Shown here in pieces: positions 5,764 to 62,042 of a stretch of 64,000 nt of DNA (position 1 is its first letter; the number at the start of each line of letters is the position of its first letter). The notes beneath the pieces are model-generated. The model worked only from the letters and a program-made list of their open reading frames with translations, had not been told where the DNA came from and made no database searches. A program made the translations under genes and the position numbers. Origin of the DNA: Carcharhinus amblyrhynchos (lineage: Eukaryota); NCBI GenBank assembly GCA_965287045.1, contig OZ336871.1:94240001-94304000 (forward strand). The letters are read 5' to 3'.

Positions 5764-6046
5764 TAATGTTTATTTACTAGTGTCACAAGTAAGCTTAATT
5801 TAAAACTGCAATGAAGTTACTGTGAAAATCCCCTAGTTGTCACTGACTCCGGTGCCTGTTTGGGTACAGTTGAGGGAGAATTTAGCATCACCAATGCAAC
5901 TAACCAGCACGTCTTTCGGTCTGTGGGAGGAAACACACCGAGACGCAGGGAGAAAGTGCAGACTCCACACAGACAGTAATCCAAGCTGGGAGTCAAACCC
6001 AGGTCCCTGGCGTTGTAAGGCAGCAGTGCTAACCATTGTGCCACCA
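5764..6046 (-). mobile_element. V-SINE with HE1-like head and core but a different 3' tail
   Basis: Head and V-core as in the other copies, followed by ACAGGCACCGGAGT...ACTAGGGGATTTTCACAGTAACTTCATTGCAG...CTTGTGACACTAGTAAA instead of the CR1 tail. Confidence 0.8.
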
Positions 6047-6050
6047 TTCT

Positions 6051-6200
6051 GGGGAGACAGTGTCATAGCATTAATGTTACTGAACAAGTTATGGCCAAAT
6101 TAATGCCCTGGGGACAGGAGCTCAGATCGCCTCCGGGCGGCTGGTGGAATTTAAATTCAATTTTTTTTAAAATCTGGAATTAAAGCCAGCCTGAGTAATA
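6051..6200 (+). mobile_element. 5' part of second tRNA-derived SINE family
   Basis: Homologous to the 5' ends of copies at 25322, 32612(-) and 49447(-) (GGTGGAATTTAAATTCAA...AAATCTGGAATTAA). Confidence 0.7.
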
Positions 6201-6204
6201 TAAT

Positions 6205-7395
6205 TTCATTCACGGGATGTGGCGGTTGCTTGTTAGATCAGCCTTTATTGCTCAATCCTAATTGCCTTGAGAAGTTGGTTAGGAGTTGCTTCTTGAACCA
6301 CTGGAGTCCCTCTGTGGGTACACTCACAGTGCTGCTCGGGAGGGAGTTCCAGAATTTTGACCCAATAGCAGTGAAGGACCAATGATACATTTCCAACTCA
6401 GGATGCTGAGTGACTTGGAGGGGAACCTCAACATAGTGGTGTTCTCATGTGTGTGCTGCCCTTGTCCTTTTAGATGGTGGCAGTCATGACTATGGAAGAT
6501 GCTGCCCAAGGACTCATGGTGAGTTCCTGCAATGCATCTTACAAATGATACACATGGCTGCCACTGTTCATCAGTGATGGTGGGAATGAATGTTGGTGAA
6601 AGGTGTGCCAATCAAACAGGCTTCTTTGTATTGGTTGGTGTCAAGCTTCTTGAGTGTTGTTGGAGCTGCACCATCCAGACAAGTAGAGATTTTTTAATCA
6701 CAGTCCTGACGTACATTGTAGATTGTGGATAGGTTTTGGGGAGTCAGGAGGTGAGTTACTTGCCAAAAGATTCCTCGCTGCTGACTTGCTTTTATAGCCA
6801 CAGCATGGACTACTTCGGTATTTGAGGATTTGCAAATGATGTTGAATATTGTGCAGTCATCAGTAGACATCACCACTTCTGATCTTATAATGGAAGAAAG
6901 TTCATCATTGCTGAAGCAGCTGAAGATGGTTGGGCATAAGACATTATCCTGATGGACTCCTGCAGAGATGTCCTGGAAACAAGATGATTGGCCTCCAAAC
7001 ACCACAACCATCATCCTTTGTGCCAGGTATGACTCCAATCAATGGAGGTAGGTTTTATCTCTAAACATAAGAACATAAGAAATAGGAGCAGGAGTAGGCC
7101 ATCTAGCCCTTCGAGCCTGCCCCGCCATTCAATAAGATCATGGCTGATCTGAAATGGATCAGTTCCATTTTCCCGCTTTCTCCCCATAACCCTTAATTCC
7201 TTGTCTATCAGAAACCTATCTACCCTGATACCTATTAACTCCAATTCTGGAGCCAAAGATGCCATACTTGGTCATTTGCTCCTGATGCAGTCACTCTCAT
7301 GTCACCTCTGGAATTTAGCTCTTTTGCCCACGTTTGAATCAAGAGCTGAGTGGCCCTAGGAGAATCCATATTGAATGTCCATGAGCAGGTGCAAT
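6205..7395 (-). mobile_element. Degenerate CR1/L2-group LINE RT and 3' end, interrupted by a CR1 tail
   Basis: ORF 6694-7038 GVHQDNVLCPTIFSCFSND...STDDCTIF is decayed GVPQGSVLGP...FADD; 3' end CAAGGCAATTAGGATTGAGCAATAAA is shared with the second SINE family. Confidence 0.85.
7064..7228 (-). mobile_element. Short CR1 3' end nested in the older LINE
   Basis: (AACATAAG)n tail plus GGAGCAGGAGTAGGCCATCTAGCCC...AATAAGATCATGGCTGATCT, homologous to the 3' UTR at 61900-62040. Confidence 0.9.
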
Positions 7396-7404
7396 AGAAT
7401 TATT

Positions 7405-7735
7405 ATTGATTACCATAAAACCCTTCCTGTTCTTTAGAGAAGGAAATCAGCCATCCTTACCTCGTCTGGACTCAAGTTCTGCAGCAAATTGGTTGACTCT
7501 TAATTACCCTCCGAAGTGACCTAGCAAGTCACTCAGTTAAACCAGAACACTATAGAAAGGTCAAAAAGGAATGAAATCTGACACACAGTCTGTCAGCCTA
7601 GCACCACTGTGGGTGAACCTGCACCAGATGACCTTCGACAGTTCAAGGAGGTAGCTCAGCATCACTTCCTCAAGGGCAATTAGGGATGGGCAACAAGTGC
7701 TGGTCTTGCATCCCATCTTGTGAATGAATAAATAT
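7405..7735 (+). mobile_element. 3' part of second SINE family
   Basis: GAAGGAAATCAGCCATCCTTACC...GGTTGACTCTTAA...CTAGCAAGTCACTCAGTT...CAAGGGCAATTAGGGATGGGCAA. Confidence 0.75.
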
Positions 7736-8099
7736 AAATGGGAGTGCCCTTTCCAAAAGTTTGACGCAGGCAAAATAGGCCAAATAGCTTCAGTTTGTGC
7801 TGTATGATTCTATGAAACTAAACTTCAACTAGAGATAAATATATTTGTGCTTAGACGCAAGGGAACATTGTTCAGGTTTATTTCCATTGAGGCTTCTAAT
7901 TTAAATGTTTTTAGAAGTGAATCTCTGAAGGAGAACACCCATGGAAATGTGCTCCCAAAAACAAATTTCTTCTGTTCTTTTAAGAGATGTGTATAGAATA
8001 CATTATATTGCAAAAATACAAGGAATCTTATAATGACCTTTACATCACAGAAGTAGGCCAACTCATTGTTTCTGTGTCGTTCAATAAAGATCTGACTAC

Positions 8100-9830
8100 A
8101 CTACTCCCATTTTCCAGCGCTTGCCTGTAGCCCTGGAGATTATGGGAGTGCAAGTGAATATTGAAATACTTCTTACATGTTATGAGAGTTTCTGACTCAC
8201 CGTTTCAGGCAGTGAGTTCCAGATTCCCACCATCCTCTCGATGAAAATGTTTCTCCTTAACTCCCCTCTTAGCCTTCTACTGCTATGCCCCTGGTTACTG
8301 ACCCCTCTCCCAATGGAAATTGTCTCTTCCTATCCACCCCATCTATGTCCCTCATATCTCATACACCTCGATTAGGTTCCTTCTCAGCCTTGGCTGCCCC
8401 AAGGAAAACAGACCAGCTTATTCAATCTTTCAACATAGCTCAGATCCCCCAGCCCTGGCAGCCCTGGTAAATCTCTTCTGCCCCCTCTCCAGAGTAATCA
8501 CGTCCTTCTTGTAATGTGGTGACCTGAACTGCACACAGTACTCCAGTTGTGACCTAACCAGTGTTTTAAACAGTTCCAGCATGACCTTACTGCTCTTGTA
8601 TTCTATGCCTTAGCTGACAAAGACAAGTATTCCATATGCCTTCTTAACCACCTTATCTCTCAGGATCCCTGCAGAGCCCTATCATTCATTGTGTAATCCT
8701 TTGCCTTGTTTGCCCTCCTCAAGCGCATTACCTCACACTTTTCTGGGTTGAATGCCATTTGCCACTGCTGTACCCACCTGACCAATCCATTGATATCCTC
8801 CTGCAAGCTAGAGCTATCCTCTTCATTATTTACCATCCTACCAATTTTTGTCTCATCTGCAAACTTCTTGGTCCTTCTCCCTACATTTAAGTCCAAATCA
8901 TTGGTGTATGCCTCAAATAGCGAGGGCCAAGCACTGAGCCCTGCAGAACCCCACTGGTAAGAGACTTCCAGTCACTGAAACATTCCTCTATCATCACTCT
9001 CTGCTTCCTGCCTCTCAGCCAATTTTGGATTCAATGTGCCACTTTATCTTGATTCCCATGGACCTTGTTTGACCTGTCTGCCATGAGGTACAAAAGCCTT
9101 GCTAAAAGTCCGTTTAGGCCACATCAAATGCATTACCCTCATCAATATTCCTGGTTGCCTTCTGAAAAAATTTGATTAAATTTGTCAAATATGACCTTCC
9201 CTTAACAAATCCATGCTGACTATCCCTGGTTATTCCATGTCCATCCAAGAGATATCCAACAGATATACTCTGTTCCTCAGAATTCTTCCTAGAAACTTCC
9301 CCACCACCGAGGTTAGACAGACTGTCCTAGGATTTACTGATTTGATTTATTATTGTCACATATATTAACATACAGTGAAAAGTATTACTTTTTGCGTGCT
9401 ATACAGAAAAAGCATACTGTTCCTAGAGAAGGAAACAAGGGAGTGCAGAATGTAGTGTTACAGTCATAGCTAAGGTGTAGAGAAAGATCAGCTTAATGCA
9501 AGGTAAGTCCATTCAAAAGTCTGACAGCAGCAGAGAAGAAGCTGTCCTTGAGTTGGTTGGTAAGTGATCTCAGACTTTTGCATCTTTTTTCTGAAGGAAG
9601 AAGGTGGAAGAGAGAACGTCCGGGGTGCATGGGGTCCTTAATTATGCTGGCTGCTTTGCCAAGGCAGCAGTAAGTGTAGATAGAGTCAATGGATGGGAGG
9701 CTGATCTATTCTGGTCTATCTCTACTTCCCTTTTTAAACAATGGGACAATGTTAGAAGTCCACTGGGCAGAGAGGATTTGAAAATTACTGCCAGTTCCCC
9801 TGATATCTCCTCCCTTGCCTCCCCCAACAA
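8100..9830 (-). mobile_element. Degenerate CR1 LINE ORF2 (RT) fragment, split by a Rex1/Babar insertion
   Basis: KFADETKIG...LQEDINGLVRW...FNPEKCEVM (8660-8896) and RILLGEAREEISGELAVIF (9710-9830). Confidence 0.9.
9338..9703 (-). mobile_element. Rex1/Babar-type LINE 3' fragment
   Basis: Encodes decayed 'SIDS.YT.RCLGKAASIIKDP.HPG..LF.LLPSG' C-terminus; (AAATC)n tail; five homologous copies in the window. Confidence 0.85.
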
Positions 9831-10222: not shown

Positions 10223-11433
10223 TGTCATGAAATCACAGCCTTTTATGTTTCTTTTTTAATCCTGCAACTGAAACCCTGTAGTTTGAAATGAGACAGCACA
10301 ACCTGCTTTAAAAATGTGAGGTCACTTTCCAAGGTGAGAAAAGCAATCAGTACCTGCCTCCAACACCCTTCATGAAGAAATGTGAAGAGAGAGATCAAAA
10401 CCCAACACTGAGGAACATATTAAAAATACAAAGTGCTGAACTTTAATCAACTGTAATATTATCATGGGGAACCACTCACCAGCCAGGATACACAACCAAG
10501 AGGCATTCGAACCACCTGCAGAGAATGAAAGAACCCCATCTCCCACTGATTTTCACTATCTTGAAATGTGTCAAAGGTTTGTGAGATGAAACGTCAAAAT
10601 GTGATGACAGCACACATGGTAATCGATTTTCCTTGGGGTATACCGCGAGCAGGATTTTAAGAACTAAGTTTGTCTTGCAGAAGCACAGGAATTTGGAGAA
10701 TCTCTCTCTCTGAAGTTAGGTAAAGCCCAATTGCCACAGCCTAAAATTTTAGCATGAGAAATAGTGAACATCCATTGGTCAGAACATCAGGAGAATCTCA
10801 TCGATCTCTGGAAGATGGATTATAACAGCTTCTTCTCTGCTGCCATCAGAATGGACCTACCTTATATTAAGTTGATCTATTTCTACACCCTAGCTATGAT
10901 TGTAACACTACATTCTGCACCCGCTCCTTTCTTCTCTATATATGGTATGCTTTGTATAGCATGCAAGAAACAATATGTACTGTATATTAGTACATGTGAC
11001 AATAGTAAATCAAATCAAAAACAAATTGTCTCCATAAAATGCAGTTACATGGACTTCAGTTCAACTCTGGGATTTTAAAGTAATCAGCTAACTTAAAATG
11101 ACCACAACATTCAACAATCTACATCTAAGGACTTAACATATTCTTTTAACTTTCTATTTGGACTCTAATTTTCCTTACTTCTGACATTTGTGTGTCTGTA
11201 ATGCCATATCTTATTTTTTCCTCAGGTTCAGTAGCTAATAAACTTGCTATTTCTTTGACTCAAGAGAAACTTGTGAATGGTTCCTTATTGTTCACTGCAT
11301 TGCTAGTAAAAAATACATTTGCATTTGGAAAAGGTAGCCATGGGGAAAATAAATGGAAAAAATCTTTGCTGCGTTCAGGCAAGGAGGCTGAATAGGGGGA
11401 AGCCAGTTCATTCCTTCTTACCTGGCTGTAACA
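10223..11433 (+). mobile_element. Solo LTR with 4-bp TSD
   Basis: Begins TGTCATGA and ends GTAACA; flanked by ATGG (10219-10222 and 11434-11437); AATAAA near 11237; splits the Gypsy pol relic. Confidence 0.8.
10824..11018 (+). mobile_element. Rex1/Babar 3' fragment nested in the solo LTR
   Basis: AACAGCTTCTTC...CATGTGACAATAGTAAATCAAATCAA, homologous to 30440-30653. Confidence 0.85.
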
Positions 11434-14129: not shown

Positions 14130-16167
14130 TCTTCAGTCCTTATATTCCGGTGAGAAAGAAGGAATGTAAGAAAAGGGATAACCAGCCATGGATAATAAGG
14201 AGATAAAGGAGAGTATTAAATTAAAAACCGATGCGTACAGAGTGGCCAAAACTATTGGGGAATTAGAAGATTGGGAAAGCTTTAAAAAACAACAAAGAAC
14301 AACTAAGAAAGCGATAAAGAAAGGAAAGATAGATTATGAAACTAAACTAGCGCAAAACATAAAAACTGATAGTAAAAGTTTTTACAAATATATAAAAAGG
14401 CTGAAGTGAATGTTGGACCCTTAGAAGACGAGAGGGGGTATTTAGTGGTGGGAAATGAGGAAATGGCCGAGGCCTTAAACAAGTTTTTTGTGTCGGTCTT
14501 CACGGTAGAGGACAAAAATAGCTTACCAAAAATTGATGGTCGTGAGACTGTAGGGGGTGAGGTCCTTAAAACGATTACTATTATTAAAGAGGTAGTGCTT
14601 GGTTGGCTAATGGGACTAAAGGTTGACACGTCCCCGAGCCTGGATGGAATGCATCATAGGGTACTGAAAGAAATGGCAGAAGTAATAGAGATGCGTTTGT
14701 AGTAATTTATCAAAATTTGTGGACTCTGGGGAAGTGCTGGCTGATTGGAAAGCAGCTAATGCGATGCCACTGTTTAATAAAGGAAGTAGACAAAAGGTCT
14801 AACGTCCGTAATTGGGAAAATGCTGGAATCCATCATTAAAGAAGAAATAGCAGGACACCTGGAAAAGAGTGGTTTGATCAAGCAGACGCAGCATGGATTC
14901 ATGAAGGGAAAGTCATGTTTGATGAATTTACTGGATTTTTATGAAAATGTAACAAGTGCAGTTGACAGAGGGGAACCGGTGGATGTGGTGTTTTTAGATT
15001 TCCAGAAGGCGTTCGATAAGATGCCTCACAAAAGGTTGCTACAGAAGATTAAGGTACTTGGAGTTGGGGGTAAAGTGTTAGCGTGGATTGAGAATTGGCT
15101 ATCTAACAGAAAGCGGAGAGTTGGAATAAATGGGTGCTTTTCTGGTTGGCTGATGGTGACTAGTGGCGTGCTGGAGCCTCAACTGTCTACCATATACATA
15201 GACGATCTGGAGGAGGGGACCGAGTGTAGGGTAGCAAAGTTTGCTGATGACACAAAGATGAGTGGGAAGGCGAATTGCGTGGAGAATGCAGAAAGTCTGC
15301 AGAGAGATTTGGATAGACTGAGTGAGTGGACGAGGATCTGGCAGATGGAGTATAATGTTGGCAAGTGTGAGGTTATCCACTTTGCAAGGAATAATAGTAA
15401 AATGGACGATTATTTAAATGGTGATAAATTACAACATGTTACTGTGCAGAGGGACCTGAGGGTCCTTGTGCATGAATCGCAAAAAGTCAGTTTGTAAGTG
15501 CAGCAAGTGATCAAGAAGGTAGATGGAATGTTGGCCTTTATAGCGAAGGGGATAGAATATAAAAGTAGGGAGGTCTTGCTGCAACTGTACAGGGTACTGG
15601 TGAGGCTGCAACTAGAGTACTGTGTGCAATTTTGGTCCCCTTATTTGCGAAAGGATATATTGGCCTTAGAGGTGCAGAGAAGGTTCACCAGGTTGATACT
15701 GGAGACGAGAGGGTTAGCTTATGAAGAGAGATTGACTAGATTGGGCCTGTACTCGTTGGAGTTTAGAAGGCTGAGGGGTGATCTTATAGAGGCATATAAG
15801 ATAATGAAGGGGCTAGATAGGGTGGAGGCAGAGAGATTCTTTCCACTTAGAAAGGAAACAAGAACTAGGGGACACAGCCTCAAAATAAGGGGGAGTCAGT
15901 TTAGAACAGAGTTGAGGAGGAATTTCTTCTCTCAGAGGGTACTGAATCTCTGGAATTCTCTGCCCATTGAAGCGGTGGAGGCTACCTAGTTGAAAGTGTT
16001 TAAGTCACAGGTAGATAGACTTCTGATCAATAAGGGAATGAAGGATTATGGGGAGCAGGCGGGTAAGTGGAACCGAACCACTACAACATCAGCCATGATC
16101 TTATTGAATGGCGAGGCAGGCTCAAGGGGCTAGGTGGCCTACTCCTGCTCCTAATTCTTATGTTCTT
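14130..16167 (+). mobile_element. 5'-truncated CR1 LINE with disrupted ORF2
   Basis: ORF pieces 14188-15989 with QHGF, DFQKAFD, FADD and C-terminal RTRGHS; frameshifts, deletions and a stop; (TTCTTATG) tail. Confidence 0.95.
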
Positions 16168-16242
16168 AACTTTGTAAATTAAATGTCAAAAAAAAGTACT
16201 TTCTCTTTGTCAACAACTTCCTGTTGTGCATTGCACTGAGTA

Positions 16243-17245: not shown

Positions 17246-18253
17246 TTTGCGGCAGTAGAGATGACTCGCTATTGGCCATTGTCAAAAGAACATAAGAACT
17301 AAGAGCAGGAGTAGGTCATCTGGCCCCTCGAGCCAGATTTCATGTCGCTGGGAAACCCATGGTAGGGGTGTGCCATTGGCGGAACCGGAAGATCATGCTG
17401 ATATGAAACAGCTGGAAAGTTACAGCCATAGATCCTTACAGCACTTTGACCCATTGTTTCTATGCTAGTCATTATGCACCTGTCCATTTTAATCCCATTT
17501 TTCAGCACTTGATGCGTAGCCTTGTTATATGCAGCAATGCAACACAATTTAGAGTCATAGAGGTTTACAGCATGGACACAGGCCCTTTGGCCTAACTTGT
17601 CCATGCCACCTTTTTTTTTAAACCCCTAAGCTAATCCCAATTTCCAGCATTTTGCCCATATCCCTCTGTACCCATTGTACCCATGTAACTATCTAAATGC
17701 TTTTTAAAAGACAAAATTTTATGTGCCTCTACTATTACCTCTAGCAGCTTGTTCTAGACACTCACCACCCTCTGTGTGAAAAAACTGCCCCTCTGGACAC
17801 TTCTGTTTCTCTCCCATCTCACCTTAAACCTATGCCCTCTAGTTTTAGACTTCCCTACCTTTAGGAAAAGATATTGACTATTTAGCTGATCTATGCCCCT
17901 CATTATTTTATAGACCTCTATAAGGTCACCCCTCAGCCTCCTGCGCTCCACAGACAAAAGTCCCAGTCTATCCAGCCTCTCCTTATAACTCAATCCATCA
18001 AGACCCAGTAGGATCCTAGTAAATCTTTTCTGCATTCTTTCTAGTTTAATAATATCCTTTCTATAATAGGGTGACCAGAATTGCACACAGCATTCCAAGT
18101 GTGGCCTTACCAATGTCTTGTACAACTTCAGCAAGGCATCCCAACTCCTGTATTCAATGTTCTGATGTGGGAATGCCGGCGTTGGACTGGCGTAAACACA
18201 GTAAAAAGTCTGACAACACCAGGTTTTAGTCCAACCGATTTATTTGATAATAC

Positions 18254-18291
18254 TCACAAGCTTTCGAGGGGACTGCCTCTTCGTCAGGTGA
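18254..18291 (-). ncRNA. Minimal type-I hammerhead ribozyme motif (intact core)
   Basis: TCAC-CTGACGA-A-GAGG-cagtcc-CCTC-GAAA-GCT-T-GTGA: stem I TCAC/GTGA, stem II GAGG/CCTC, palindromic AGCT in place of stem III. Confidence 0.8.
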
Positions 18292-18307
18292 ATGGAGAGT
18301 TCTCCAT

Positions 18308-18345
18308 TCACCTGACAAAGAGGCAGTCCCCTCGAAAGCTTGTGA
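18308..18345 (+). ncRNA. Hammerhead motif with core mutation (CTGACAA)
   Basis: Mirror of 18254-18291, but G8 changed to A in the CUGANGA box. Confidence 0.65.
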
Positions 18346-18432
18346 GTATTATCAAATAAATCGGTTGGATTAAAACCTGGTGTTGTCAGACTTTTTCAGT
18401 GTTCTGACCAGTGAAACCAAGCATGCCGAATG

Positions 18433-18549
18433 CCTTCTTCACACTGTCCACTTGTGACTCCACTTTCAAGGAGCTATGAAATTGTATCCCTTCTTCACCA
18501 CTCTGTCCACTTGTGACTCCACTTTCAAGGAGCTATGAAATTGTATCCC
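18433..18549. repeat. Tandem duplication of about 58 bp within CR1
   Basis: CCTTCTTCA...CTGTCCACTTGTGACTCCACTTTCAAGGAGCTATGAAATTGTATCC present twice. Confidence 0.9.
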
Positions 18550-19191
18550 TAGACCTCTTTGTACTGTAACTCTCCCCAAAGCCCTACCATTAACTGAGTA
18601 AGTCCTGCCCTGCATCAGTCTACCAAAATGCATCACCTCGCATTTGTCTGAAGTAAAATTGGTGACACCAATCTTGGTATCATCTGCAAACTTACTAGCC
18701 ATGCCTCCTATATTCTCATCCAAATCATTAATATAAATTACAAATAATAGTGGACCCTGCACTGATCCTGAGGCGCAGCGCTGGTCATAGGCCTCCAGTT
18801 TGAAAAACAATTCTCTACGACCACCCTCTGGCTTCTGTCAGGAAGCCATTTTTGTATGCATTTAGATACCTCACCCTGGATCCCGTGAGATTTAACCTTA
18901 TGCAACAACCTATCATGCGGCACCTTGTCAAAGGCCTTGCTAAAGTCCATGTAGACAATATCAACTGCACTGCCCTCATCTACCTTCTCGGTTACCCCTT
19001 CAAAAAACTCAAGTCAAATTTGTGAGACATGATTTTCCACTCACAAAGCCATGCTGACTGTCCGTAATCAGTACTTGATATATGAGAAGTTAAAACCTGG
19101 TAATACAGTTCATAGAATAGAGCAAGATATTGAAATTTTATAAAATTCAATATGTTGTAATGGCATTACAATGTTAGTAATGTTACAATGT

Positions 19192-19795
19192 TAGGGAGGT
19201 CTTGCTGCAGCTGTATAGGGCACTGGTGAGGCCGCAGCTGGAGTACTGTGTGCAGTTTTGGTTGCCGCACTTACGCAAGGATATTTTGGCCTTGGAGGGA
19301 GTGCAGAGGAGGTTTACTAGGCTGATTCTGGAGTTGAGGGGGTTGAACTATGAGGAGAGGCTGAACAAACTAGGCTTGTACTCATTAGAGTTTAGAAGAA
19401 TGAGGGGAGATCTCATTGAGACATATAAGATGTTGAATGGGATGGATAGGATAGAGGTGGAGAGGCTCTTCCCGCTCAGAAAGAACAGTAGGACTAGAGG
19501 GCACAGCCTCAGGATAAAGGGGGGGCGGTTTAGAACGGAGTTGAGGAGGAACTTCTTCACTCAAAGGGTGGTGACTCTCTGGAATTCTCTGCCCGTTGAA
19601 GTGGTGGAGGCTGCCTCGCTCAATATTTTTAAGATGCGGGTTGATAGGTTTTTGATAGGCAAGGGGATTAAGGGTTATGGGGAGAGGGCGGGTATGTGGA
19701 ACTGAGTCACGACAGATCAACCATGATCTTATTGAATGGCGGGGCAGGCTCGAGGGGCTAGATGGCCTACTCCAGCTCCTATTTCTTATGTTCTT
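19192..19795 (+). mobile_element. Young CR1 3' fragment
   Basis: Open 167-aa ORF2 C-terminus; highly similar to 61441-62040; (TTCTTATG) tail. Confidence 0.95.
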
Positions 19796-20714
19796 AGTAT
19801 CGTATTATGTAAATTATCATATTATTTCACATTGGAAATATGTACGACTGGACTTGAATAAGGCTCATGATAAAGTAAATTTGCTGCAGACTGCTACTGA
19901 ATTCATCGATGGACAGTGCCTAAAGAGAACTTTTGTTATCAATGAGTTCAATAGTAATGATCTATGGTTCTATTCAGAGGATTACACAAATATTTCAGTA
20001 AATACAATGAAAGTATAGTTGGTAAAAATTCTATTTCTCTAATATCATGTCCAAATTTGGTTCCTACCTAAATAGATAATAAAAATGTTTTCATTGTTGA
20101 TAACTATATTTGCTGAAAAGGCACCATTTGAAATCCAAGGGCAAGCACTCAATGTTCTACCAAATTGTAACAAGCCAATCCACTGAATCAAAATTGAAAA
20201 AGCCAGAATACAGAAGTACTGATCCAATGGTTTCTGAGGAATTAAGTGGTCCCCTGATACATCTGTTTTAACTGTTCTTTTCTACAGCACAGATCCTGCC
20301 TATCCACATAAAGCCATCAAATCTCAGGACGATAGATCCATACTGTGAGAATGTCAAAGCTCACAGACATCACAATGAATGAGAAGCTATTACAGTACCT
20401 TATTGAAAAAATCTACCGCTATCTGATTTCAAATTTGAGACACTTTTAAATTTAATCTAGATAAAGAGAAAACCTTTTGTATCCAGGTCAATATCACAGC
20501 ATCCAGAACCAACAAACTATAGATTCAATAGGGTATGACATCCTGGTCTCAATAGGAATGTAGTTTCTTGTGATGTGTTTGGTGATCTGATCAGCTGCGA
20601 GTGATTCCCATTGCATTTAAATAGTAGCAAAATATCTTTAGCCGCCCTTTCACATTATGAGCACATTTTATTCATCAACAGTTCCCTGGTCACATCTATT
20701 TCAATAACACAGTC

Positions 20715-30179: not shown

Positions 30180-30653
30180 AAACATCCTTTCTGGTTGTAT
30201 CACAGCTTGGTATGGGTCCTGCTTTGTCCAAGACCACAAGGAAATTAAAAAGGTTGTCGATGTAGCCCAATCCATCACGCAAACCCACCTCCCATCCATT
30301 GACTCTGTCTACACTTCCCGCTGCCTCAGCAAAGCATCCAGCATAATTAAGGACCCCACACATCCTGGACATTCTCTCTTCCACCTTCTTCCTTCGGGAA
30401 AAAGATACAAAAGTCTGAGGTCACGTACCAACCAATTCAAGAACAGCTTCTTCCCTGCTGCTGTCAGAGTTTTGAATGAACTTGCCTTGCATAAAGTTGA
30501 TTTTCTCTACACCCTACGACTGTAACATTACATTCTGCACTCTCTTGTTTCCTTCTCTATGAATGGTATGTTTTGTCTATATAGCGTGCAAGAAACAATA
30601 CTTTTCACTGTATGTTAATATATGTGACAATAATAAATCAAATCAAATCAAAT
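30180..30653 (+). mobile_element. Rex1/Babar LINE 3' fragment
   Basis: CITAWYGSC...SIDSVYTSRCLSKASSIIKDPTHPGHSLFHLLPSGKRYKSLRS; (AAATC)3 tail. Confidence 0.9.
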
Positions 30654-31280
30654 AGACCTTTGTTGACATTTCTCTATCATTATGTCTTTATGAATAGTTG
30701 GCTGACTTTCAAAAGCTACTACCTCCTCCGCAGCTAGTATGCAGGGTCCTGTTGATGATTGCCCAGCAAATCATTGCTCACTAATGTTATTTAAAAGGGT
30801 AGGCTTGTCACAGAGTGTTGGGATTCTTCCCATTTGGCACCAGATTAGTGTGCAAACCTAACAAGTGATTGCTCTAGCTGGACAAACAGTTGGAACCTTA
30901 TTTATGTTTTGTGCCACTAATGTGTGCGTTTTTGGCTAGTTAAACTCCAGTAGTACACCTGCACACATAACACTCTGGCAATCTGACTGTAGGTTCTCAG
31001 AATTTGGCCCACTGGTTTGTGTCTCTTAATGGAGAGAATGTGTACTCTGCAGTGGGAAAACATAAATTGTACATGTATAAACTTCTCAGCAGCTTGTGTC
31101 AGAGGATCTTATGAATGGTGATAGGCTTTTGTATTTGTTCAGTTCTTGCCAAATCAAAAAAAAATGAATCACTTGTTTGCAAATGAGCATTATCCCTGCA
31201 AACCTTTTAAATTATATCCTTCAGGTATATTCTCATATCTTGTCAATGATGATCACTTCTAACAAATTCTCTTCATTTTA

Positions 31281-31634
31281 ATTTGATTTATTATTTATAT
31301 GTGTTAGTATACAGTGAAAAGTACTGTGTCTTGCGTGTGTACAGACAAAGCATAATGTTCATAGAGAAGGAAACGAGAGAATGCAAAATATAGTGTTACA
31401 GTCATAGCAAGTGTGTAGAGAAAGAACAACTTAACGCAGGGTAAGTCCATTCAAAAGTCTGATAGCAACAGGGAAGAAGCTGTTTTTGAGTCGGTTGGAA
31501 TGTGACCTCAGACTTTTACATCTTTTTCCAATGGAAGAGAGAATGCCTAGGGTGTGTGTGGTCCTTAATAATGCTGGCTGCTTTGTCGAGGCAGCAGAAA
31601 GTGTAGATAGAGTCAATGGATGGGAGGCTGGTTT
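31281..31634 (-). mobile_element. Rex1/Babar LINE 3' fragment
   Basis: GKRCKSLRSHSNRLKNSFFPVAIRLLNG; homologous 3' UTR. Confidence 0.88.
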
Positions 31635-32612: not shown

Positions 32613-33222
32613 GCATACCCATAAGATGGGAAACATAGCAGCGCTCTTCCCTGTTCATTCCTGTATCAGTCAATGCAGCTTCCAGCCGTTTGAAGCAATA
32701 TATTTAAATGCTGATCCTATGACCAAAAAATAGGGTGTTTCTCTTGCTGAATTTCCTGGGTAGTAAAGCCCCATTTGTCTGAAGATGGGACAGTAGCAAG
32801 ATAAAGATAAACCTTATTCAATGTTTGAGTTAATAGTCTCAACGTTACCCTCTCAAGATGGGTGGGAGAAAGTAAGAGGGGCGGGGATGAATAAATGTGA
32901 GGAATGCATTTTTATGGTGGCATATTGGGCCAATCAAATAACCTCCCATGGAGAGATTCAACCCTGTAAATATCTGGGTCCAAGAGGAAAGTGGGAGTGA
33001 AAATCTCGTTTGTAAATTTCAAGCAAAGAATGCAGGATTTATAATTATTGGTAATTCAGCAATTGGTAATTGTTTTCCAATACCATATACCATGGGTGGA
33101 AATCTACCAAAATGCAACAAAGCATTATAATGGTAGGAAAACTGGAGCGATTAGCACTAGGTTAGTTTCTCATGTATGTTCTGCACCACAATCATCCTAC
33201 ACTCAGTCATTTTTTGGAGCAG

Positions 33223-33502
33223 TGATGTGGAGTTGCCAGCATTGGACTGGAGTGGGCACAGTAATTAGTCTCACAACACCAGGTTAAAGTCCAACAGGTT
33301 TATTTAGTAGCATGCGCTTTTGGAGCGCTGCTCCTTCATCGGTGATTGCCTGATGATGAAGCACTCACTGAAGGAGCACTGATGAAGCCACTCACCTGAT
33401 GAAGGAGCAGTGCTTCGAAAGCTCATGCTACCAAATAAACCCGTTGGACTTTAACCTGGTGATGTGAGACAACTTACTGTCCAACCCGGCAACTCCACAT
33501 CA
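33223..33502. mobile_element. Fold-back Penelope-like element end (second subfamily) with TSD
   Basis: Termini TGATGTGGAGTTGCC / GGCAACTCCACATCA; imperfect arms; TSD TTTTTTGGAGCAG (33210-33222) / TTTTTTGGAGGAG (33503-33515). Confidence 0.85.
33393..33427 (+). ncRNA. Minimal type-I hammerhead ribozyme motif
   Basis: CAC-CTGATGA-A-GGAGC-agt-GCTTC-GAAA-GCT-C-ATG; core intact, stem I weakened (ATG for GTG). Confidence 0.7.
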
Positions 33503-36500
33503 TTTTTTGGAGGAGAGTTTCGTGCCAATGCTGGGGGGGTGTGGAGGGTGTGGGGGGGTGGGTGCATCAGGACGTAAACACACTAGTAATCCCAGCTTCA
33601 GAGTGCTCAGGCGCCGCTTTGCAAGGGTGTCCCGATTTCAGTGCACTGGGAGAAGCCCGCCCACCTCCAATGGGCATTGGGATCCTCCCTTATCAGTGAC
33701 ATGTTCCCCCAAACTCTTCCTCTTGCAGGCTACAAGCATCAGGGCTCCGATGGGTCCCTCTGCCTGACCCCAACATAATCCCCATTCATGACCCGAACAT
33801 GATCCATCCCTGCATGATCTCTTATTGCAGCCTCCATTCAGGCCCCAACTCCCTGGCACTTCCCCGGCACACAGGCAGTGCTCAGCTGGTACTGCTGGAG
33901 TGTCTGGTGTGCATTGTCATGTGGGCTGTGTCCAATGGACACCACCTCACCAAGCTCTGGACCACCATGGGGCTTCAGTGGCCTCTCAGCTCTTGATGTG
34001 GCCACTGCATCAGGTCCCTGATAGTGGAGGCCAGCAGTAATCCCTCCCCCACCCCCTCATCTTGTGTCATGCCTGAAGGCCAGAGGATCCAGTGCGCTGG
34101 GAGTCAAATGGGCTATGCATATTTAAATGCTATTTTAAATCCCTTTCTGGGTGCAATTTGTGCCATTAAGAAGGGGCAGGGAGGACTGCCAACTGTTTGG
34201 CACTATGTGCAATATCTATTTTTAGGCCCGCTTGCTACTGTCCGGGATCAGCGCAATTCGCATAGGTGCGAGGAGATCGGAAAATCGGCCACCATATTAT
34301 TCTTATTTCTTTTCATTTTAATCTACATGCCAAAATCAGAAAATTTCAGCATACTTACAATTTACCTGTATTAGATTTACAAAGAGGTAAAATGTATTCA
34401 GAGTACCACCCTTTCAATTCTAGGACCGAATTTTGAAACACATTTGGATTAATAGATCCACCCTTCACAACTGGGTAAGTGAAATGTATTTGAACAACTC
34501 TCTGTGGATTTCCTTATGTCTTGTAACTTGGAATATTGACACTAAATTGACAGTCTTGCTATGGGTTGTATGCTACAGGAACAGCAGCAGCTAAAGTAAT
34601 GGAAATGTCATAATGGCGTTGTAGAAATGTTCTCTAAGATCGATGCAGCAGTCTATTGTCATGTCAGAGTGACAGACAGTTATTCTGTATCTGACTGTGT
34701 TCTATTACTGGGAGTGCTTATTAGGAAATTGGGTGCATCTTGCTCTCTGCAATCTTCCATCTTTTTGATTTTAATGAATTCCCAGCATGTGCTCCTACAG
34801 GTGCACAAAGCTTTGTGCTAGGAATGCACAACGTGCAAATATTTACTCCATAATGTTTTATTCAGTAGTTTAATTTCCAACGTTACGCTACCTGAAATTT
34901 ATCAAGTATTCCAATTTTCAGCCTTTTTGAATTCAGGTCCAAAAATCAGGTGAAAGCAGCTGTAAGGAAATGTGTGCTTTGGAGGTCAGTAATAAAACAG
35001 TTCATGTAAGCCAAATAACTTCAAGTGTAATCACGTTTAAACAGAAATACGATGATGTAAGGAACAAAAGTGAACCCAGGATTTAAGCCATGGATTAAAT
35101 AAAAACATAATGGGAGTTGTTTTGTTGTATGGCAAGTGTAAAATTAACAATTTTGTATGAGGTGCCCATTCTATATTTTCATCCAATTTCCATTTTCATT
35201 GAAGTTATATATTTATTAATGCATCAGAAAATAACGGAGAGTCATTTTAGGCAACTGTGTCCCAAATGTTAGTGGTGTGGTGTAATTTCAGAATGAAAAT
35301 ACTTAAAATACACTTATGTTCTTATGTTCTTATATTCACCAAGTACAGTGTGAAAATTCGACATGCATTGTTAATCATGCCCTTTGTGTTATCAAAACTT
35401 CAGCTGGTTGCAGGTGATTGAAGGAACGCACAACATCACTGCTACCAATCAGCACTGAGAGAAGCTCAAACTCTCCCTTGTCCAAATAGGTAAAGCAACT
35501 TTATATGTCAATGCATAGCTATAACACATTGCCACCACAATCAGTCTTAACCTTAATTTTGGAATTTTTCTTTTGAGAGAGCCATTATTGAACTTTCGGC
35601 TAAAATATCTCATTGATTCCTCGGTCTATTAGGCAATCTTTCCATCAGCAAAGTTTAGATGCTGTTGAATAACTCATCTTGTATAATGATAACAACATGT
35701 AGGTTTAAATGTTTTGTCTTGCTGAGGACCAGACCAAAAACTCCAATGTATGTTATACCATTAGCCTGGACCCCAAAATTTGCACTTGATTTTGGCATTA
35801 GGGTGAGCACAAGGTATTTTGCTCCAGTATGTTTCAATTGACCCATTACAAAGCTGTTATGAAAACAAACTTTATTTAAGAACACAGACTATAGTATAAT
35901 TCTTAACAACTAGCAATCCCTATAATGACAGAAAGGGCCACCCCTCTCTACAGGTTCCAAAACAGCAACTAACCTTGAATTCTCTGTGTAAACCTGGCTC
36001 CATTAAGTCATATCACCTTACTTGTCAATCAACCAGATTACATCCTACTCTGCAAAACCCCAGGGGGTTCACTAAGAACACAAAACAGCATTAGTCCAGA
36101 TTAAAATACACATTCTAGCAAATAGAAGCTATTATGCTGCAGCAGCAACAACACAGAGTTGCTGGATGTAGATAAACTGGCATAAAAAGAAACTGCTAAA
36201 ACAGATCCTGCACAAGAAACAGACAACCACATTTCTTAAAGCTCAGTATTGTCTCATTCTTGCCACCAATACTACCTAACTGGCTGAGATCTGTATTGGC
36301 AACATTTTCTGTTTAATTTCAGATTTCCAGCATTGACAGTATTTTGCCTTTATATTAAGGTGCTAGAGTTTGTATTGGATGACCAAGGGATCTGGAATTT
36401 TTGGATGGTGAGTTTTCACTTCCTGCCATACTGACTCTTTGCTGACTGAGAGTGCCATGCAGATATTTCATGCTCAAATGAACATTAATTTACTCCAGGT

Positions 36501-38693: not shown

Positions 38694-41566
38694 GAACATA
38701 GAACATAAACATAGAACATAGAACATTACAGCGCAGAACAGGCCCTTCGGCCCACGATGTTGCGCCGACCAGTTACAAAAACAATGACCCACTAGCCTAT
38801 ACCAATCCCTTTTCGTCCATAAACCTATCCAGAGATCTCTTAAACGCCCCCAAACTAGACGCATTTACAACTGCAGCAGGCAGGGCATTCCAATCCCTCA
38901 CCACCCGCTGGGTAAAGAACCTACCCCTGACATCCGTCCTGTAGCTACCCCCCCTTAATTTAAAGCCATGCCCCCTCGTGCTAGCTTTCTCCATCCGAGG
39001 AAAAAGGCTATCACTATCCACCCTATCTAAACCTCTAATCATCTTATATGTTTCAATAAGATCCCCTCTTAGCCGCCTTCTTTCCAATGAAAACAACCCT
39101 AGATCCCTCAGTCTCTCCTCATAGGACCTCCCCACCATACCAGGCAACATCCTAGTAAACCTCCTCTGCACCCTCTCCAACGCCTCCACATCCTTCTTGT
39201 AATGCGGGGACCAGAACTGCACACAGTACTCCAAGTGCGGCCGCACTAGAGTAGTGTACAGTTGCAACATTACACTGCGACTCCTAAATTCAATCCCCCT
39301 ACCAATAAACGCCAAGACACCGTACGCCTTCTTGACAACCTTATCTACTTGATTCCCAACTTTCAGGGATCTATGTACACACACACCTAGATCCCTCTGT
39401 TCATCCACACTATTCAAAGCCCTCCCGTTAGCCCTATACTCGACACATCTGTTGCTCCTACCAAAGTGAATTACCTCACACTTCTCCGCATTAAATTCCA
39501 TCCGCCACCTCTCGGCCCAGCTCTGCAACCTATCTAAGTCTCCCTGCAGACTATGACACCCTTCCTCACAATCTACCACACCTCCAACTTTGGTGTCATC
39601 AGCAAATTTACTAATCCACCCAACTATACCCTCATCCAGATCATTAATAAAAATTACAAACAACAGTGGCCCCAAAACAGATCCCTGAGGCACACCACTC
39701 GTAACTGCACTCCATGATGAATATTTACCATCCACCACCACCCTCTGTCTCCTATCTGATAGCCAATTCCTGATCCAACTTCCTAGATTACCCACAATCC
39801 CATACATCTGCATTTTCTGCAGAAGCCTCCCATGGTGAACCTTATCGAACGCCTTACTAAAATCCATGTATACCACGTCAACTGCCTTACCCCTATCCAC
39901 CTCTTTGGTCACCTTCTCAAAAAACTCAATAAGGTTAGTAAGGCACGACCTACCTGCTACAAAACCATGCTGACTATTTCTAATCAATTCATTACACTCC
40001 AAATAACTATAAATCCTATCCCTAATAATTTTTTCTAAAACCTTGCCCACAACAGAAGTAAGACTCACCGGTCTATAATTCCCGGCAAAGTCTCTGTTCC
40101 CCTTCTTAAACAATGGGACAACATTCGCTATCCTCCAATCCTCCGGGACTACACCAGAGACCAATGACGACCTGAAGATCTGAGCCAGAGGCTCTGCAAT
40201 CACCTCTCTAGCCTCCCAGAGAATCCTAGGGTAGATCCCATCCGGACCAGGGGACTTATCTATTTTCAGCCCCTCAAGAATTTCCAGCACATCCTCTTTA
40301 TCAACCGTAATACTGTCTATTTTACACCCCTGCAACCCAATGTCCTCCTCAGCTATATTCATGTCCCCCTGCGTGAACACCGAAGAGAAATATTGGTTCA
40401 ATACTTCTCCAATCTCCTCCGGTTCCACACACAACTTCCCCCTGCTGTCTGTAACTGGCCCTAATCTTGCCCTGACCAACCTTCTGTTCTTGACATACTT
40501 ATAGAACGCCTTAGGATTCTCCTTAATCCTATCAGCCAAAGTCTTCTCATGTCCTCTTTTAGCCCTTCTCAACTCACTCTTCAACTCCCTCCTAGCCAAT
40601 CTAAAGCTTTCTAGTGCACTTACTGAGCCCTCCAATCTCATCCGAACATAAGCCTCCTTTTTCTTTTTAACCATTGACTCAACTCTTTTAGTGCACCACG
40701 GTTCCCTAGATCTACCAAATCCACCATGCCTGACAGGGACATACCTATCAAGGACTCGCAGTAGCTGCTCCTTGAAAAAACTCCACATTTCAGACGTTCC
40801 CAGTCCCTGTAATCCCCTAATCCAATCCATGCGTCCTAATTCACTCCTGATAGCCTCATAATCGCCCTTACCCCAGCTAAAATTGCTGACCCGAGGTTCA
40901 TGCCTATCTCTTCCCATCACTAAGGTGAACGTAACCGAATTGTGGTCACTATCACCAAAATGCACACCAACTTCCAAGTCTAGCACCTGGTCTGGCTCAT
41001 TTCCCAGCACCAAATCCAATATAGCCTCACCTCTAGTTGGCCTGTCTACATACTGAGACAAAAAACCTTCCTGCACGCTTTGTACAAACACTGACCCCTC
41101 TAGCGAGCTAGAACTATAGCAACTCCAATCAATATTCGTAAAGTTAAAGTCCCCCATAACAATTACCCTATTACTTTCACTCCTAACCAGGATTGTCTCC
41201 GCAATCCTTTCCTCAACCTCTCTAGAACTTTTAGGAGGTCTATAAAAGACTCCCAACAGGGTGACCTCTCCTCTCCTATTTCTAATCTCCGCCCATACTA
41301 CCTCAACTGACAAGTCCTCATCAAACTTTCTCTCCGACACTGTGATACAGTCCTTGACTAGCAATGCTACCCCACCCCCCCTTCTACCTTCTTCTCTACT
41401 CCGACTAAAGCATTTGTACCCCGGAACCTGCAACATCCATTCCTGACCCTGCTCTATCCATGTCTCAGAAATGGCCACAACATCAAAGTCCCAGGTACTG
41501 ATCCACGCTGCAAGTTCATCCACTTTATTGCGAATACTCCTCGCATTAAAGTACACGCATTTCAGT
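38694..41566 (-). mobile_element. Young CR1 LINE truncated at the start of ORF2
   Basis: Complete ORF2, short 3' UTR, (GTTCTAT)n tail at 38694-38726; no ORF1 or 5' UTR. Confidence 0.97.
38797..41556 (-). CDS. CR1 ORF2: APE endonuclease plus reverse transcriptase, 919 aa, uninterrupted
   Basis: APE motifs NARS, SETW, GGGV, YRPP, GDFN, SDH; RT motifs KSPGPDG, NYRPVSLTS, QHGF, DFSKAFD, GVPQGSVLGP, FADD. Listed start is GTG, with no upstream in-frame ATG. Confidence 0.95.
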   Translation of the reverse strand: MYFNARSIRNKVDELAAWISTWDFDVVAISETWIEQGQEWMLQVPGYKCFSRSREEGRRGGGVALLVKDCITVSERKFDEDLSVEVVWAEIRNRRGEVTLLGVFYRPPKSSREVEERIAETILVRSESNRVIVMGDFNFTNIDWSCYSSSSLEGSVFVQSVQEGFLSQYVDRPTRGEAILDLVLGNEPDQVLDLEVGVHFGDSDHNSVTFTLVMGRDRHEPRVSNFSWGKGDYEAIRSELGRMDWIRGLQGLGTSEMWSFFKEQLLRVLDRYVPVRHGGFGRSREPWCTKRVESMVKKKKEAYVRMRLEGSVSALESFRLARRELKSELRRAKRGHEKTLADRIKENPKAFYKYVKNRRLVRARLGPVTDSRGKLCVEPEEIGEVLNQYFSSVFTQGDMNIAEEDIGLQGCKIDSITVDKEDVLEILEGLKIDKSPGPDGIYPRILWEAREVIAEPLAQIFRSSLVSGVVPEDWRIANVVPLFKKGNRDFAGNYRPVSLTSVVGKVLEKIIRDRIYSYLECNELIRNSQHGFVAGRSCLTNLIEFFEKVTKEVDRGKAVDVVYMDFSKAFDKVHHGRLLQKMQMYGIVGNLGSWIRNWLSDRRQRVVVDGKYSSWSAVTSGVPQGSVLGPLLFVIFINDLDEGIVGWISKFADDTKVGGVVDCEEGCHSLQGDLDRLQSWAERWRMEFNAEKCEVIHFGRSNRCVEYRANGRALNSVDEQRDLGVCVHRSLKVGNQVDKVVKKAYGVLAFIGRGIEFRSRSVMLQLYTTLVRPHLEYCVQFWSPHYKKDVEALERVQRRFTRMLPGMVGRSYEERLRDLGLFSLERRRLRGDLIETYKMIRGLDRVDSDSLFPRMEKASTRGHGFKLRGGSYRTDVRGRFFTQRVVRDWNALPAAVVNASSLGAFKRSLDRFMDEKGLV

Positions 41567-41813: not shown

Positions 41814-42220
41814 ATTTGATTTGATTTATTATTGTCACATGTATTAGCGTACAGTCAAAAGTCTTATTTCTTGTGCAATATATAAACAAAGCATACTGTT
41901 CATAGAGAAGGAAAGGAGCGGGTGCAGAATGTAGTATTACACTCATAGCTAGAGTGTAGAGAAAGATCAGTTTAGTGCGAGGTAGGTTTATTCAAAAATC
42001 TGATGGCAGCAGAGAAGAAGTTGTTCTTGTGTCGGTTGGTACGTGACCTCAGATTTTTGTATCTTTTTCCTGATGGAAAAAGGTGGAAGAGAGAATGCTC
42101 GGGGTGTATGGGATCCTGAATTATGCTGGCTGCTTTGCCGAGGTAGTGGGAAGTGTAGATGGAGTCAATGGATGGAAGGCTGGTTTGTGTGATGGACTGT
42201 GCGTCATTCACGATCCTTTG
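41814..42220 (-). mobile_element. Rex1/Babar LINE 3' fragment
   Basis: AQSITQTSLPSIDSIYTSHYLGKAASIIQDPIHPEHSLFHLFPSGKRY; (AAATC)n tail. Confidence 0.9.
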
Positions 42221-59952: not shown

Positions 59953-60234
59953 TAGCTGAAATGTAGAGGCCAAGTTTGAGGATGTATCTGATTTTGATAT
60001 TGGTTTGAGCGAAGTGTTGTGATGACTAAATTGATTGACAATGACAGAGTTATGAATTAATGGGAGAAGCTAAGCTTGCAGCAAAGAAAAAGGTTTCAGT
60101 TTCATTATAAAATACAAGCAATTGCTACCTGAGCTGCCAGAAGAAAGCAGCGTCTGTCTGTCTGTCTCTCTCTCCAAAGTAAAAAGTCTGACAACACCAG
60201 GTTTTAGTCCAACCGATTTATTTGATAGTAAACG

Positions 60235-60268
60235 CACAAGCTTTCGGGGTTAGTCCCTTCGTCAGGTG
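60235..60268 (-). ncRNA. Minimal type-I hammerhead ribozyme motif (antisense arm)
   Basis: Reverse complement identical to 60559-60592. Confidence 0.78.
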
Positions 60269-60558
60269 AATGGAGAGTTCTGGCCTCAGACAGAGCATAT
60301 AAAGCACAGACTGTTTAGAGATTACTGATTAGAATGCGAATCCTTACACTGACTTGCCTGGGTTTGCAAAACCTCACTTACTGTACTGTCTGGAGACAAT
60401 ACACATCTCTGTAACCTGTGATCAGTGCTCCTTCCACTCACATTGTCAGCCACTTCAGGTCTTGAACAGCAGGTTAGGTGTAAGGATTCGCATTCTAATC
60501 AGTAATCTCTAAACAGTCTGTGCTTTATATGCTCTGTCTGAGGCCAGAACCCTCCATT

Positions 60559-60592
60559 CACCTGACGAAGGGACTAACCCCGAAAGCTTGTG
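60559..60592 (+). ncRNA. Minimal type-I hammerhead ribozyme motif
   Basis: CAC-CTGACGA-A-GGG-actaac-CCC-GAAA-GCT-T-GTG, followed by AATAAA at 60605. Confidence 0.8.
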
Positions 60593-60885
60593 CGTTTACT
60601 ATCAAATAAATCGGTTGGACTAAAACCTGGTGTTGTCAGACTTTTTACTGTGTTTACGCCAGTCCAACGCCGGCATACCCACATCATCTCTCTCCAAAGG
60701 CATTCTGAAAGCTCTAAACTTGGTAACCCAAGTCAAAGTAAGTAAATCTGTGTTTTGCTAACTAATTTTAAAGAGAGGTTTAAGTCTATAGGAGAAATAT
60801 TGTTTGATTGGAACTTACAGTTGGATTGTTTAAGTATTGTTCAATTCATTTGTTATAGTTAAATTGCATTGTTAAATAACTTTGC

Positions 60886-62042
60886 TTACAAGAGGTTATT
60901 GCAGAAGGTAAGGGGGCATGGAGTTGGGGGTAGGGTGTTAGCGTGGATAGAGGATTGGTTGTCAAATAGGAGACAGAGAGTGGGGGTTAATGGGTGCTAT
61001 TCGGATTGGCGGTTGGTGACTAGTGGAGTGCCCCAGGGGTCGGTGCTGGGGCCTCAGCTATTTACCATTTATATAGATGATCTGGAGGAGGGAACCGAGT
61101 GTATGGTATCCAAATTTGCTGATGACACCAAGATTGGTGGAACGGCAAATTGCGCGGAGGGTGTGGAGAGTCTGCAGAAGGATCTAGATAGGCTGGGCGA
61201 ATGGGCCAGGAAATGGCAAATGGAATTTAATGTTGGCAAGTGCGAGGTGGTCCACTTTGGCAGGAATAATGGTAGGAAGGACTATTACTTACATGGCGAA
61301 AATATGCAGCAGGCGACGGTGCAGAGGGACCTCAGGGTCCTTGTGCGTGAGTCGCAAAAACCCAGCCTGCAGGTGCAGCAGGTGGTCAGGAAGGCTAATG
61401 GGATGCTGGCCTTCATAGCGAGGGGGATTGAATATAAAAGTAGGGAGGTCTTGCTGCGGCTGTATTGGTGAGGCCGCAGCTGGAGTACTGTGTGCAGTTT
61501 TGGTTGCCGTACTTACGCAAGGATATTTTGGCCTTGGAGGGAGTGCAGAGGAGGTTTACTAGGCTGATACCAGAGTTGAGGGGGTTGAGCTATGAGGAGA
61601 GGCTGAATAAACTAGGCTTGTACTCGTTAGAGTTTAGAAGAATGAGGGGAGATCTCATTGAGACGTATAAGATGATGAATGGGATGGATAGGATAGAGGT
61701 GGAGAGGCTCTTCCCGCTCAGAAAGGACAGTAGGACTAGGGGGCACAGCCTCAAGATAAAGGGGGTGCGGTTTAGAACGGAGTTGAGGAGGAACTTCTTC
61801 ACTCAAAGGGTGGTGAATCTCTGGAATTCTCTGCCCGTTGAGGTGGTGGAGGCTGCCTCGCTAAATATTTTTAAGACGCGGGTTGATGGGTTTTTGATAA
61901 GTGAGGGGATTAAGGGTTATGGGGAGAGGGCGGGAATGTGGAACTGAGACACGACAGATCAGCCATGATCTTATTGAATGGCGGGGCAGGCTCGAAGGGC
62001 TAGATGGCCTACTCCTGCTCCTATTTCTTATGTTCTTATGTT
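60886..62042 (+). mobile_element. Young 5'-truncated CR1 LINE
   Basis: GVPQGSVLGP and FADD; ORF broken by a 7-bp deletion near 61465 relative to the 19192 copy; (TTCTTATG)n tail. Confidence 0.95.

Follow-up and report, generated by a model that had tools for sequence, protein, structure and literature searches.

The question raised by this locus is how a ribozyme stem can stay paired while its letters change, and whether isolated copies of such a ribozyme could still be at work. In the window, a 64,000-nt stretch of the Carcharhinus amblyrhynchos genome that was analyzed as a whole, hammerhead motifs at three loci carry different stem II sequences: GGAGC/GCTTC at 33393, GAGG/CCTC at the 18k locus, and GGG/CCC at the 60k locus. 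Each of these pairings had been proposed in a sequence-only reading and was confirmed. That reading had also recognized the motifs as minimal hammerheads of Penelope-like elements (PLEs) with a palindromic stem III, which agrees with the core boxes and the AGCT present at the window loci. The feature is genuine and belongs to a known class, and pairing kept as letters change has already been described for PLEs. Minimal hammerheads (min-HHR) were described in the pseudo-LTRs of metazoan Penelope-like elements by Cervera and De la Pena in 2014 (PMC4209133), together with covariation, palindromic stem III, dimers, and opposite-strand pairs, and the variability of hammerheads within a genome was noted there as unexplained. 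In Penelope elements, the hammerhead is a poor cutter in vitro and is dispensable for insertion in the one in vitro system.

The motif at positions 33393 to 33427 (+ strand) is a decayed copy of a minimal type I hammerhead of the older family A, in which the core boxes and a stem II of 5 bp can be read from the sequence. It comprises the 5' strand of stem I (33393-33395), the CUGAUGA box (33396-33402), an extra A (33403), stem II with a 3-nt loop (33404-33416), GAAA (33417-33420), the AGCU palindrome (33420-33423), and C17 (33424). Stem I does not form, because C faces A at its first pair, adjoining the cut site. The motif lies in the right arm (33388..33502, + strand) of a head-to-head insertion, which holds the 3' part of the pLTR with AATAAA and a long tail with a small deletion. 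The left arm (33223..33351, - strand) has an intact stem II, GGAGC/GCTCC, and a damaged core, in which one base is absent from CUGA and G12 is changed to A. Between the arms, the junction (33341..33397, +) is built from short fragments of the 5' half of the hammerhead, repeated directly, and separates the arms by 57 nt. The insertion is flanked by a target-site duplication (33207..33222 on the left, 33500-33515 on the right; 15/16 identical).

The other two loci belong to the young family B. At 18252..18293 (- strand), an intact minimal hammerhead has C3 at 18287, stem II at 18279-18266 with a 6-nt loop, U17 at 18258, and a stem I of 6 bp. The entire insertion spans 18163..18398, with a long tail on the minus arm and a short tail on the plus arm, between target duplications at 18154-18165 and 18396-18407 (11/12 identical); the plus arm, with C3 at 18312, carries a G8-to-A change. 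At 60559..60592 (+ strand), a second family B motif with an intact core has C3 at 60562, stem II at 60570-60581, also with a 6-nt loop, U17 at 60589, and a stem I of 3 bp. It is the plus arm, with the long tail, of an insertion at 60175..60689 whose minus arm (C3 at 60265) has the short tail; the target duplication is 13 nt long (60167-60179 and 60687-60699). The arms of the 18k and 60k loci are 89 to 91% identical and their stem II sequences differ, as the sequence-only reading had remarked, and the same pattern recurs genome-wide. The window thus contains six hammerhead motifs, two arms at each of three loci, and target duplications of 12 to 16 nt flank all three insertions. The min-HHR core is present in the motifs at 33396 (+), 18287 (-), 60562 (+), and 60265 (-), and is broken in those at 18312 (+) and in the 33k minus arm. 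Helix I measures 6 bp at 18k and 3 bp at 60k and is missing at 33393, compared with 4 to 5 bp in the min-HHR definition. A loose core pattern matched nine times within the 64 kb, which is at chance level (shuffled mean, 6.6). An Rfam scan of the window returned five matches at E values up to 1, none to a hammerhead family, which is what a motif lacking a stable stem III should give.

The window holds other repeats as well. A 58-nt direct duplication, 95% identical, lies immediately to the right of the 18k insertion (18434-18550). A repeat of about 365 bp, SINE-sized and containing no tRNA according to ARAGORN, occurs in five copies that are 73 to 88% alike (9338-9703, 10824-11020, 30265-30648, 31277-31634, and 41814-42202). 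Several longer repeat fragments that are related to one another, and which we take to be probable LINE pieces, lie at 15025-16168, 19192-19796, 38867-40064, and 60885-62044. The 18k insertion is nested in one such fragment, since both of its flanks match 38897-39986.

The pattern CTGAYGAA-N8-22-GAAAGCT was searched across the 2.92-Gb genome, with the reversed pattern as a control, and gave 65,031 matches versus 34. Full-length elements were reached via closely spaced matches to the hammerhead pattern. In these relatives, an ORF lies between two direct repeats that each carry a hammerhead and are spaced by about 3.0 kb (hammerhead spacing of 3,013 to 3,079 bp in 19 units), often with an additional inverted arm. 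The ORF encodes RVT_1 (E, 7e-10) and GIY-YIG (E, 3.6e-5) domains, both absent from the window stubs, and a C-x4-C-x2-C linker is visible in its translation. Family A loci contain ORF pieces, 65 to 75% identical, upstream of the motif. On sequence grounds, the window loci are 5'-truncated head-to-head insertions of an EN+ Penelope-like element. The linker would fit the Neptune clade, an assignment made from the linker only, which is shared with Nematis. The order of domains, with an RT followed by a CX2-5CxxC linker and, at the C terminus, GIY-YIG, is that of the Neptune-type EN+ PLEs of Craig et al. 2021 (PMC8557442). Partial tandems, an inverted 5'-truncated arm, a tail of 30 to 40 bp at one end, and target duplications are also shared with such elements (PMC8557442; Arkhipova et al. 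2013, PMC3846280), and head-to-head arms with a one-sided tail and a duplication are a described PLE insertion structure (PMC3846280). Among 84 head-to-head pairs of family B, 77 combine a long tail with a short one, and a duplication of at least 12 nt flanks 74, compared with 0 of 400 mismatched flank pairs. A non-LTR retrozyme, defined by non-coding head-to-tail tandem units that each carry a type I hammerhead (bioRxiv 10.64898/2026.07.22.740005), was ruled out: the window loci are inverted pairs, and their relatives encode a PLE ORF.

The motif shares with the published min-HHR (PMC4209133) the CUGANGA and GAAA boxes, the extra base between positions 9 and 10.1, the G10.1-C11.1 pair, and the palindromic 15.2-16.2. 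Likewise shared are thousands of copies in covarying consensus families, opposite-strand pairs, tandems of about 3 kb, and high variability. In contrast, stem II is 3 to 5 bp long here and 7 to 8 bp long in Schistosoma, and the 65,031 matches, obtained with a looser pattern, compare with 4,000 to 9,000 in coelacanth and Xenopus as reported in that study.

Several peculiar insertion structures were observed alongside. An identical 33-nt junction occurs in 12 of 50 close inverted pairs (the first 50 listed, G000:C1 and C2); one arm begins there about 15 nt before the core and about 20 to 25 nt past the TATA-like box, and the sharing may reflect an RNA start or fold-back microhomology. In one inverted insertion (L008:2495-2531), the arms meet on the AGCT palindrome, and the core and stem II are absent. 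Four matches to the post-cut segment with a 49-nt spacing form a small tandem array of pseudo-LTR origin (G000:C11:58609775-58609948, - strand). In addition, insertions with identical flanks recur in G000:C1:0.06-3.6 Mb (for example, L046 and L073, or L223 and L224), which points to a segmental duplication at the contig start.

The central claim of the sequence-only reading was that pairing is kept despite changed letters. Aligned in register from both stem ends, the 18k and 60k stems differ by one two-sided change (pair 2, A-U versus G-C) and a loop change, and the 33k stem adds a two-sided change at pair 3. The claim stands at these two pairs; the G-U of 33393 is most likely private decay, because the partner arm and most relatives carry GCTCC. 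Genome-wide, two-sided changes were found at pairs 2, 3, and 4. With the core fixed, pair 2 (10.2-11.2) is G-C in 14,660 copies, A-U in 10,285, G-U in 476, and A-C in 306 (n = 25,727), whereas about 6,160 A-C would be expected if the two sides were independent. Stem II thus covaries as it does in the min-HHR, by counts that treat related copies as separate.

Alleles were compared in 310 deduplicated copies (333 before deduplication). Loci L001 to L030, found with the decayed 33393 query, were excluded because decay of that kind is overrepresented among them. All 14 alleles present in at least three loci close with at least three pairs, compared with 10.5 when the 3' halves are shuffled (P = 0.0003), in a test that ignores relatedness and includes one CpG-decay allele. 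A-U occurs at pairs 3 and 4 in 23 and 10 of the 310 copies. Pair 1 is G-C in 285 and GAAAGCT (AGCU) is present in 289, most copies having been selected with the exact core pattern or for their similarity to a single young copy, a choice that masks variation in the core and reduces the diversity of the body. Position 17 is U in 239 copies, A in 61, C in 7, and G in 3, matching the hammerhead rule that this position is H (not G).

The rare combinations at pair 2 are informative as well. One G-U allele with a GTAA loop accounts for 33 of 100 rows among the G-U matches listed, often on both arms of an insertion, and its A-C mirror for 5 of 100 rows among the A-C matches listed, as counted by eye. 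Within the 100 A-C rows listed, two insertions have A-C at pair 2 on both arms, and one of these pairs is the GTAA-loop mirror allele. Because neutral decay should yield G-U and its A-C mirror about equally, the wobble allele was itself amplified, and in sequence it is intermediate to the G-C and A-U alleles that share its loop. The value of this family lies partly here, as the amplified intermediate is present within the same young family. The number of independent events may nevertheless be small: a tree of 49 upstream sequences requires seven switches of pair 2, and its well-supported branches force only one. Since an allele swap shifts both sides of the stem together, independent compensatory mutations may number as low as one per pair.

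These data bear on a mutational origin of the alleles, by slippage in G/C runs, template switching in hairpins, and gene conversion among the 65,000 copies, with no selection on RNA structure. Some alleles do lie one base apart in a C run, and mismatches are tolerated at stem I and at pair 4: A lies opposite C in the second stem I pair of at least 39 of the 310 copies, including one of the commonest lineages, and pair 4 is lost in three recurrent alleles, others being 3-bp stems. However, one-step hairpin copying predicts no amplified G-U intermediate, and one exists; the avoidance of G at position 17 also speaks against this origin. Selection on stem II pairing is, we infer, well supported. 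As for the earlier claim of selection on stem II structure, the pairing kept across lineages stands, and selection itself is deduced from that pairing. A side observation concerns a very common young lineage whose post-cut sequence starts with GCG (for example, L036, L133, L200, and L221), in which A is opposite C at stem I pair 2; this lineage spread despite a weaker ribozyme, as predicted from the stem I mismatch by the cut site.

The earlier reading had spoken of structure kept in at least three subfamilies. The plurality holds, but three is too few: at least 13 recurrent stem II alleles exist, and they are not tied to one backbone. At least nine are found on copies chosen solely by 231 nt of upstream sequence. 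To place this variability within the element, full-length copies were compared. The best 40 of 2,173 ORF-start candidates gave 37 regions, 16 of which yielded both repeats; with L061 and L067 added and one tandem duplicate removed, the sample comprised 18 full-length elements. Their bodies diverge by 1.7% (2.5% at fourfold sites), somewhat lowered by the similarity filter on this sample, and they carry 10 stem II alleles that differ by 3.9 edits per 12.7 nt. By comparison, 14-nt windows of the body differ by a mean of 0.25 and a maximum of 2.1 edits (3,032 windows). Stem-loop II is consequently more variable than any body window, at more than 10 times the body level and about tenfold over fourfold sites. 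With its tens of thousands of copies, this young family allows the variability to be localized to one hairpin against a body that is 1.7% divergent. Some elements only 0.8 to 1.2% divergent have stem II sequences five to six edits apart. Four alleles are shared by flanks of the old and the young type, and the element body is also mosaic. The segment just past the cut site is variable too (1.5 edits per 15 nt).

This variability does not look like a simple per-copy mutation hotspot, since the 67 arm pairs that are no more than one edit apart show differences at 10 of 849 stem II sites (1.2%) and at 16 of 1,005 core sites (1.6%); the post-cut segment differs at 25 of 993. Adding seven multi-edit arm pairs raises the stem II difference to about 3%, which a mutational origin could accommodate. 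Stem II is, on the other hand, identical at both ends in 16 of 19 full-length units, with unlike alleles at the two ends of one unit (L067). With stem II no more changeable than the core and below the post-cut segment in the near-identical pairs, we regard an origin by mutation only as quite improbable. Linkage tests did not demonstrate a crossover hotspot by the cut site. Four-gamete conflicts reach 45 to 53% beside stem II versus 24 to 33% in the body, on few sites and with CpG homoplasy, and markers on either side of stem II are linked to each other no less strongly than to stem II.

Alternatively, the diversity itself might be favored, through balancing or diversifying selection on stem-loop II with pairing retained, for instance as escape from host small RNAs or restriction factors or in self/non-self pairing. 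The tenfold excess over fourfold sites, the persistence of alleles on old and young backbones, and the amplification of at least 13 alleles side by side would all follow. However, neutral exchange in a recombining population predicts the same pattern, and the post-cut segment is variable as well, which makes this alternative unlikely in our view.

Stem II alleles can be used as barcodes to ask whether one or two RNAs contributed to a head-to-head insertion. The same allele is found on both arms in 57 of 74 duplication-flanked pairs, compared with a random expectation of 9%, and the two arms of an insertion thus appear to share one source in the usual case. Random pairing of RNAs in trans as the rule was rejected on the same count. 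Unlike recurrent alleles, at least three edits apart within one duplication, are firmly established at L039, L120, and L146, with an additional private change on one arm of L039, and plausible at L078, L119, L135, and L143, giving 3 to 7 of the 74 single insertions. The simplest reading of these mixed arms suggests two RNA templates in one insertion event. L120 and L146, each with one short arm, could instead derive from a single RNA with unlike repeats, and later gene conversion is a possible source of mixed arms. The long mixed pairs L197 and L210 were excluded from the count because a target duplication was not found; L196 and L199 are possibly nested insertions.

Taken together, we consider it reasonably probable that stem II in these truncated PLE insertions stays paired since their sources needed a foldable ribozyme, and that its letters vary as any paired version works and lineages exchange versions by template switching. 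Selection would act only on transcribed source elements. Two direct copies in the source RNA would pair via AGCU as a double hammerhead, probably aided by the protein of the element, and uncut RNA would be the template for most inserted copies. Two RNAs would sometimes serve one insertion, by which stem II could pass from one backbone to another and evade sweeps that affect the body. The window copies would probably be inert.

A more speculative proposal, to which we give only a small chance, draws on the dimer-initiation site of retroviruses. By this analogy, the AGCU palindrome and double hammerhead would mainly be a dimer-initiation site: each particle would hold two RNAs, a dimeric RT would copy one onto each strand, and switching nearby would make stem-loop II an exchangeable cassette. 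If so, insertions with unlike alleles would document in a genome, for the first time, that Penelope elements package two RNAs, and stem II alleles would be a natural barcode of such packaging.

Points of comparison come from PAc, a Poseidon element of Anolis (Frangieh et al. 2024, PMC11167929). Its two RT start points match the long and short tails seen here, both DNA strands are cut and extended, and uncut RNA is the main template. Two RNAs per insertion would fit a PAc-type protein, which is predicted to be dimeric and extends both strands (PMC11167929). The PAc hammerhead is described as conserved among species of Anolis, and the PAc ORF begins at stem II (PMC11167929), whereas in the shark element the stop-free frame starts past the hammerhead and stem II is free to vary.

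The sequence-only reading had proposed that a single inverted insertion could cleave only by pairing with another copy in trans. Its first half is correct: a cis double hammerhead is impossible in an inverted insertion, because the arms are antisense to one another. Trans cleavage by the window insertions is not supported, since a long hairpin predicted for their read-through RNA encloses the motif. Folding of read-through RNA from inverted insertions gave predicted hairpins of -174 to -383 kcal/mol with the whole motif paired. Drawn double hammerheads reached -10 to -19 kcal/mol and were the lowest-energy cofold in none of six pairs tried.

The idea that isolated inverted insertions are transcribed and cleave in trans with other copies, also across subfamilies, nonetheless has some points in its favor. 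AGCU is common to 289 of 310 copies, and mixed-allele double hammerheads, at -11 to -18 kcal/mol, are akin to same-allele ones. Both 60k arms carry a TATA-like box, the only ones kept in the arms of a window locus, and this locus alone of the three could yield an RNA free of the antisense arm. Small PLE hammerheads reportedly cleave as dimers, to go by the title of a 2016 paper by Lunse, Weinberg, and Breaker, and dimer cleavage in vitro, although weak, is also described for the min-HHR (PMC4209133). Against this stand the predicted hairpin, the missing stem I of 33393, and the core changes in two further arms. Moreover, a Poseidon hammerhead needed the protein of its element in order to cut, and no RNA-seq reads ended at its site (PMC11167929). 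Trans cleavage of this kind is accordingly very unlikely. The hammerhead more likely works within the full-length element, where two direct copies lie about 3.0 kb apart, and the three window copies are ordinary and probably inert.

Among 7,000 copies that share one common post-cut sequence, U16.1 is kept in 6,930 and absent in 70, and about 99% of them thus span an intact cut site. This agrees with uncut RNA as the main in vitro template of PAc (PMC11167929). Thirty loci from the 70 copies without U16.1 were examined: 23 break off no more than two bases from the site, six are intact motifs with a point change, and one has an internal deletion. The footprint of cut templates would thus be at most about 1%, an upper bound that may include background truncation and is no measure of enrichment.

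The accessible text of the 2014 study (PMC4209133) notes the variability of these hammerheads without a comparison to the element body, allele sharing between backbones, or mixed arms. Hypervariability of the stem relative to the body, a wobble intermediate, and mixed arms were not found in the accessible literature on Penelope hammerheads and shark genomes; an earlier description is possible.

Two further observations concern stem II. Contigs from runs X1 to X3 (three organisms, possibly RNA runs), aligned to the pseudo-LTR, also vary at the stem II positions (L067:3537-3547). Finally, at L196:377-3609 (+ strand), three hammerheads of like orientation, separated by 2.46 kb and 0.77 kb, carry three different stem II alleles, in either a tandem or a nested arrangement.
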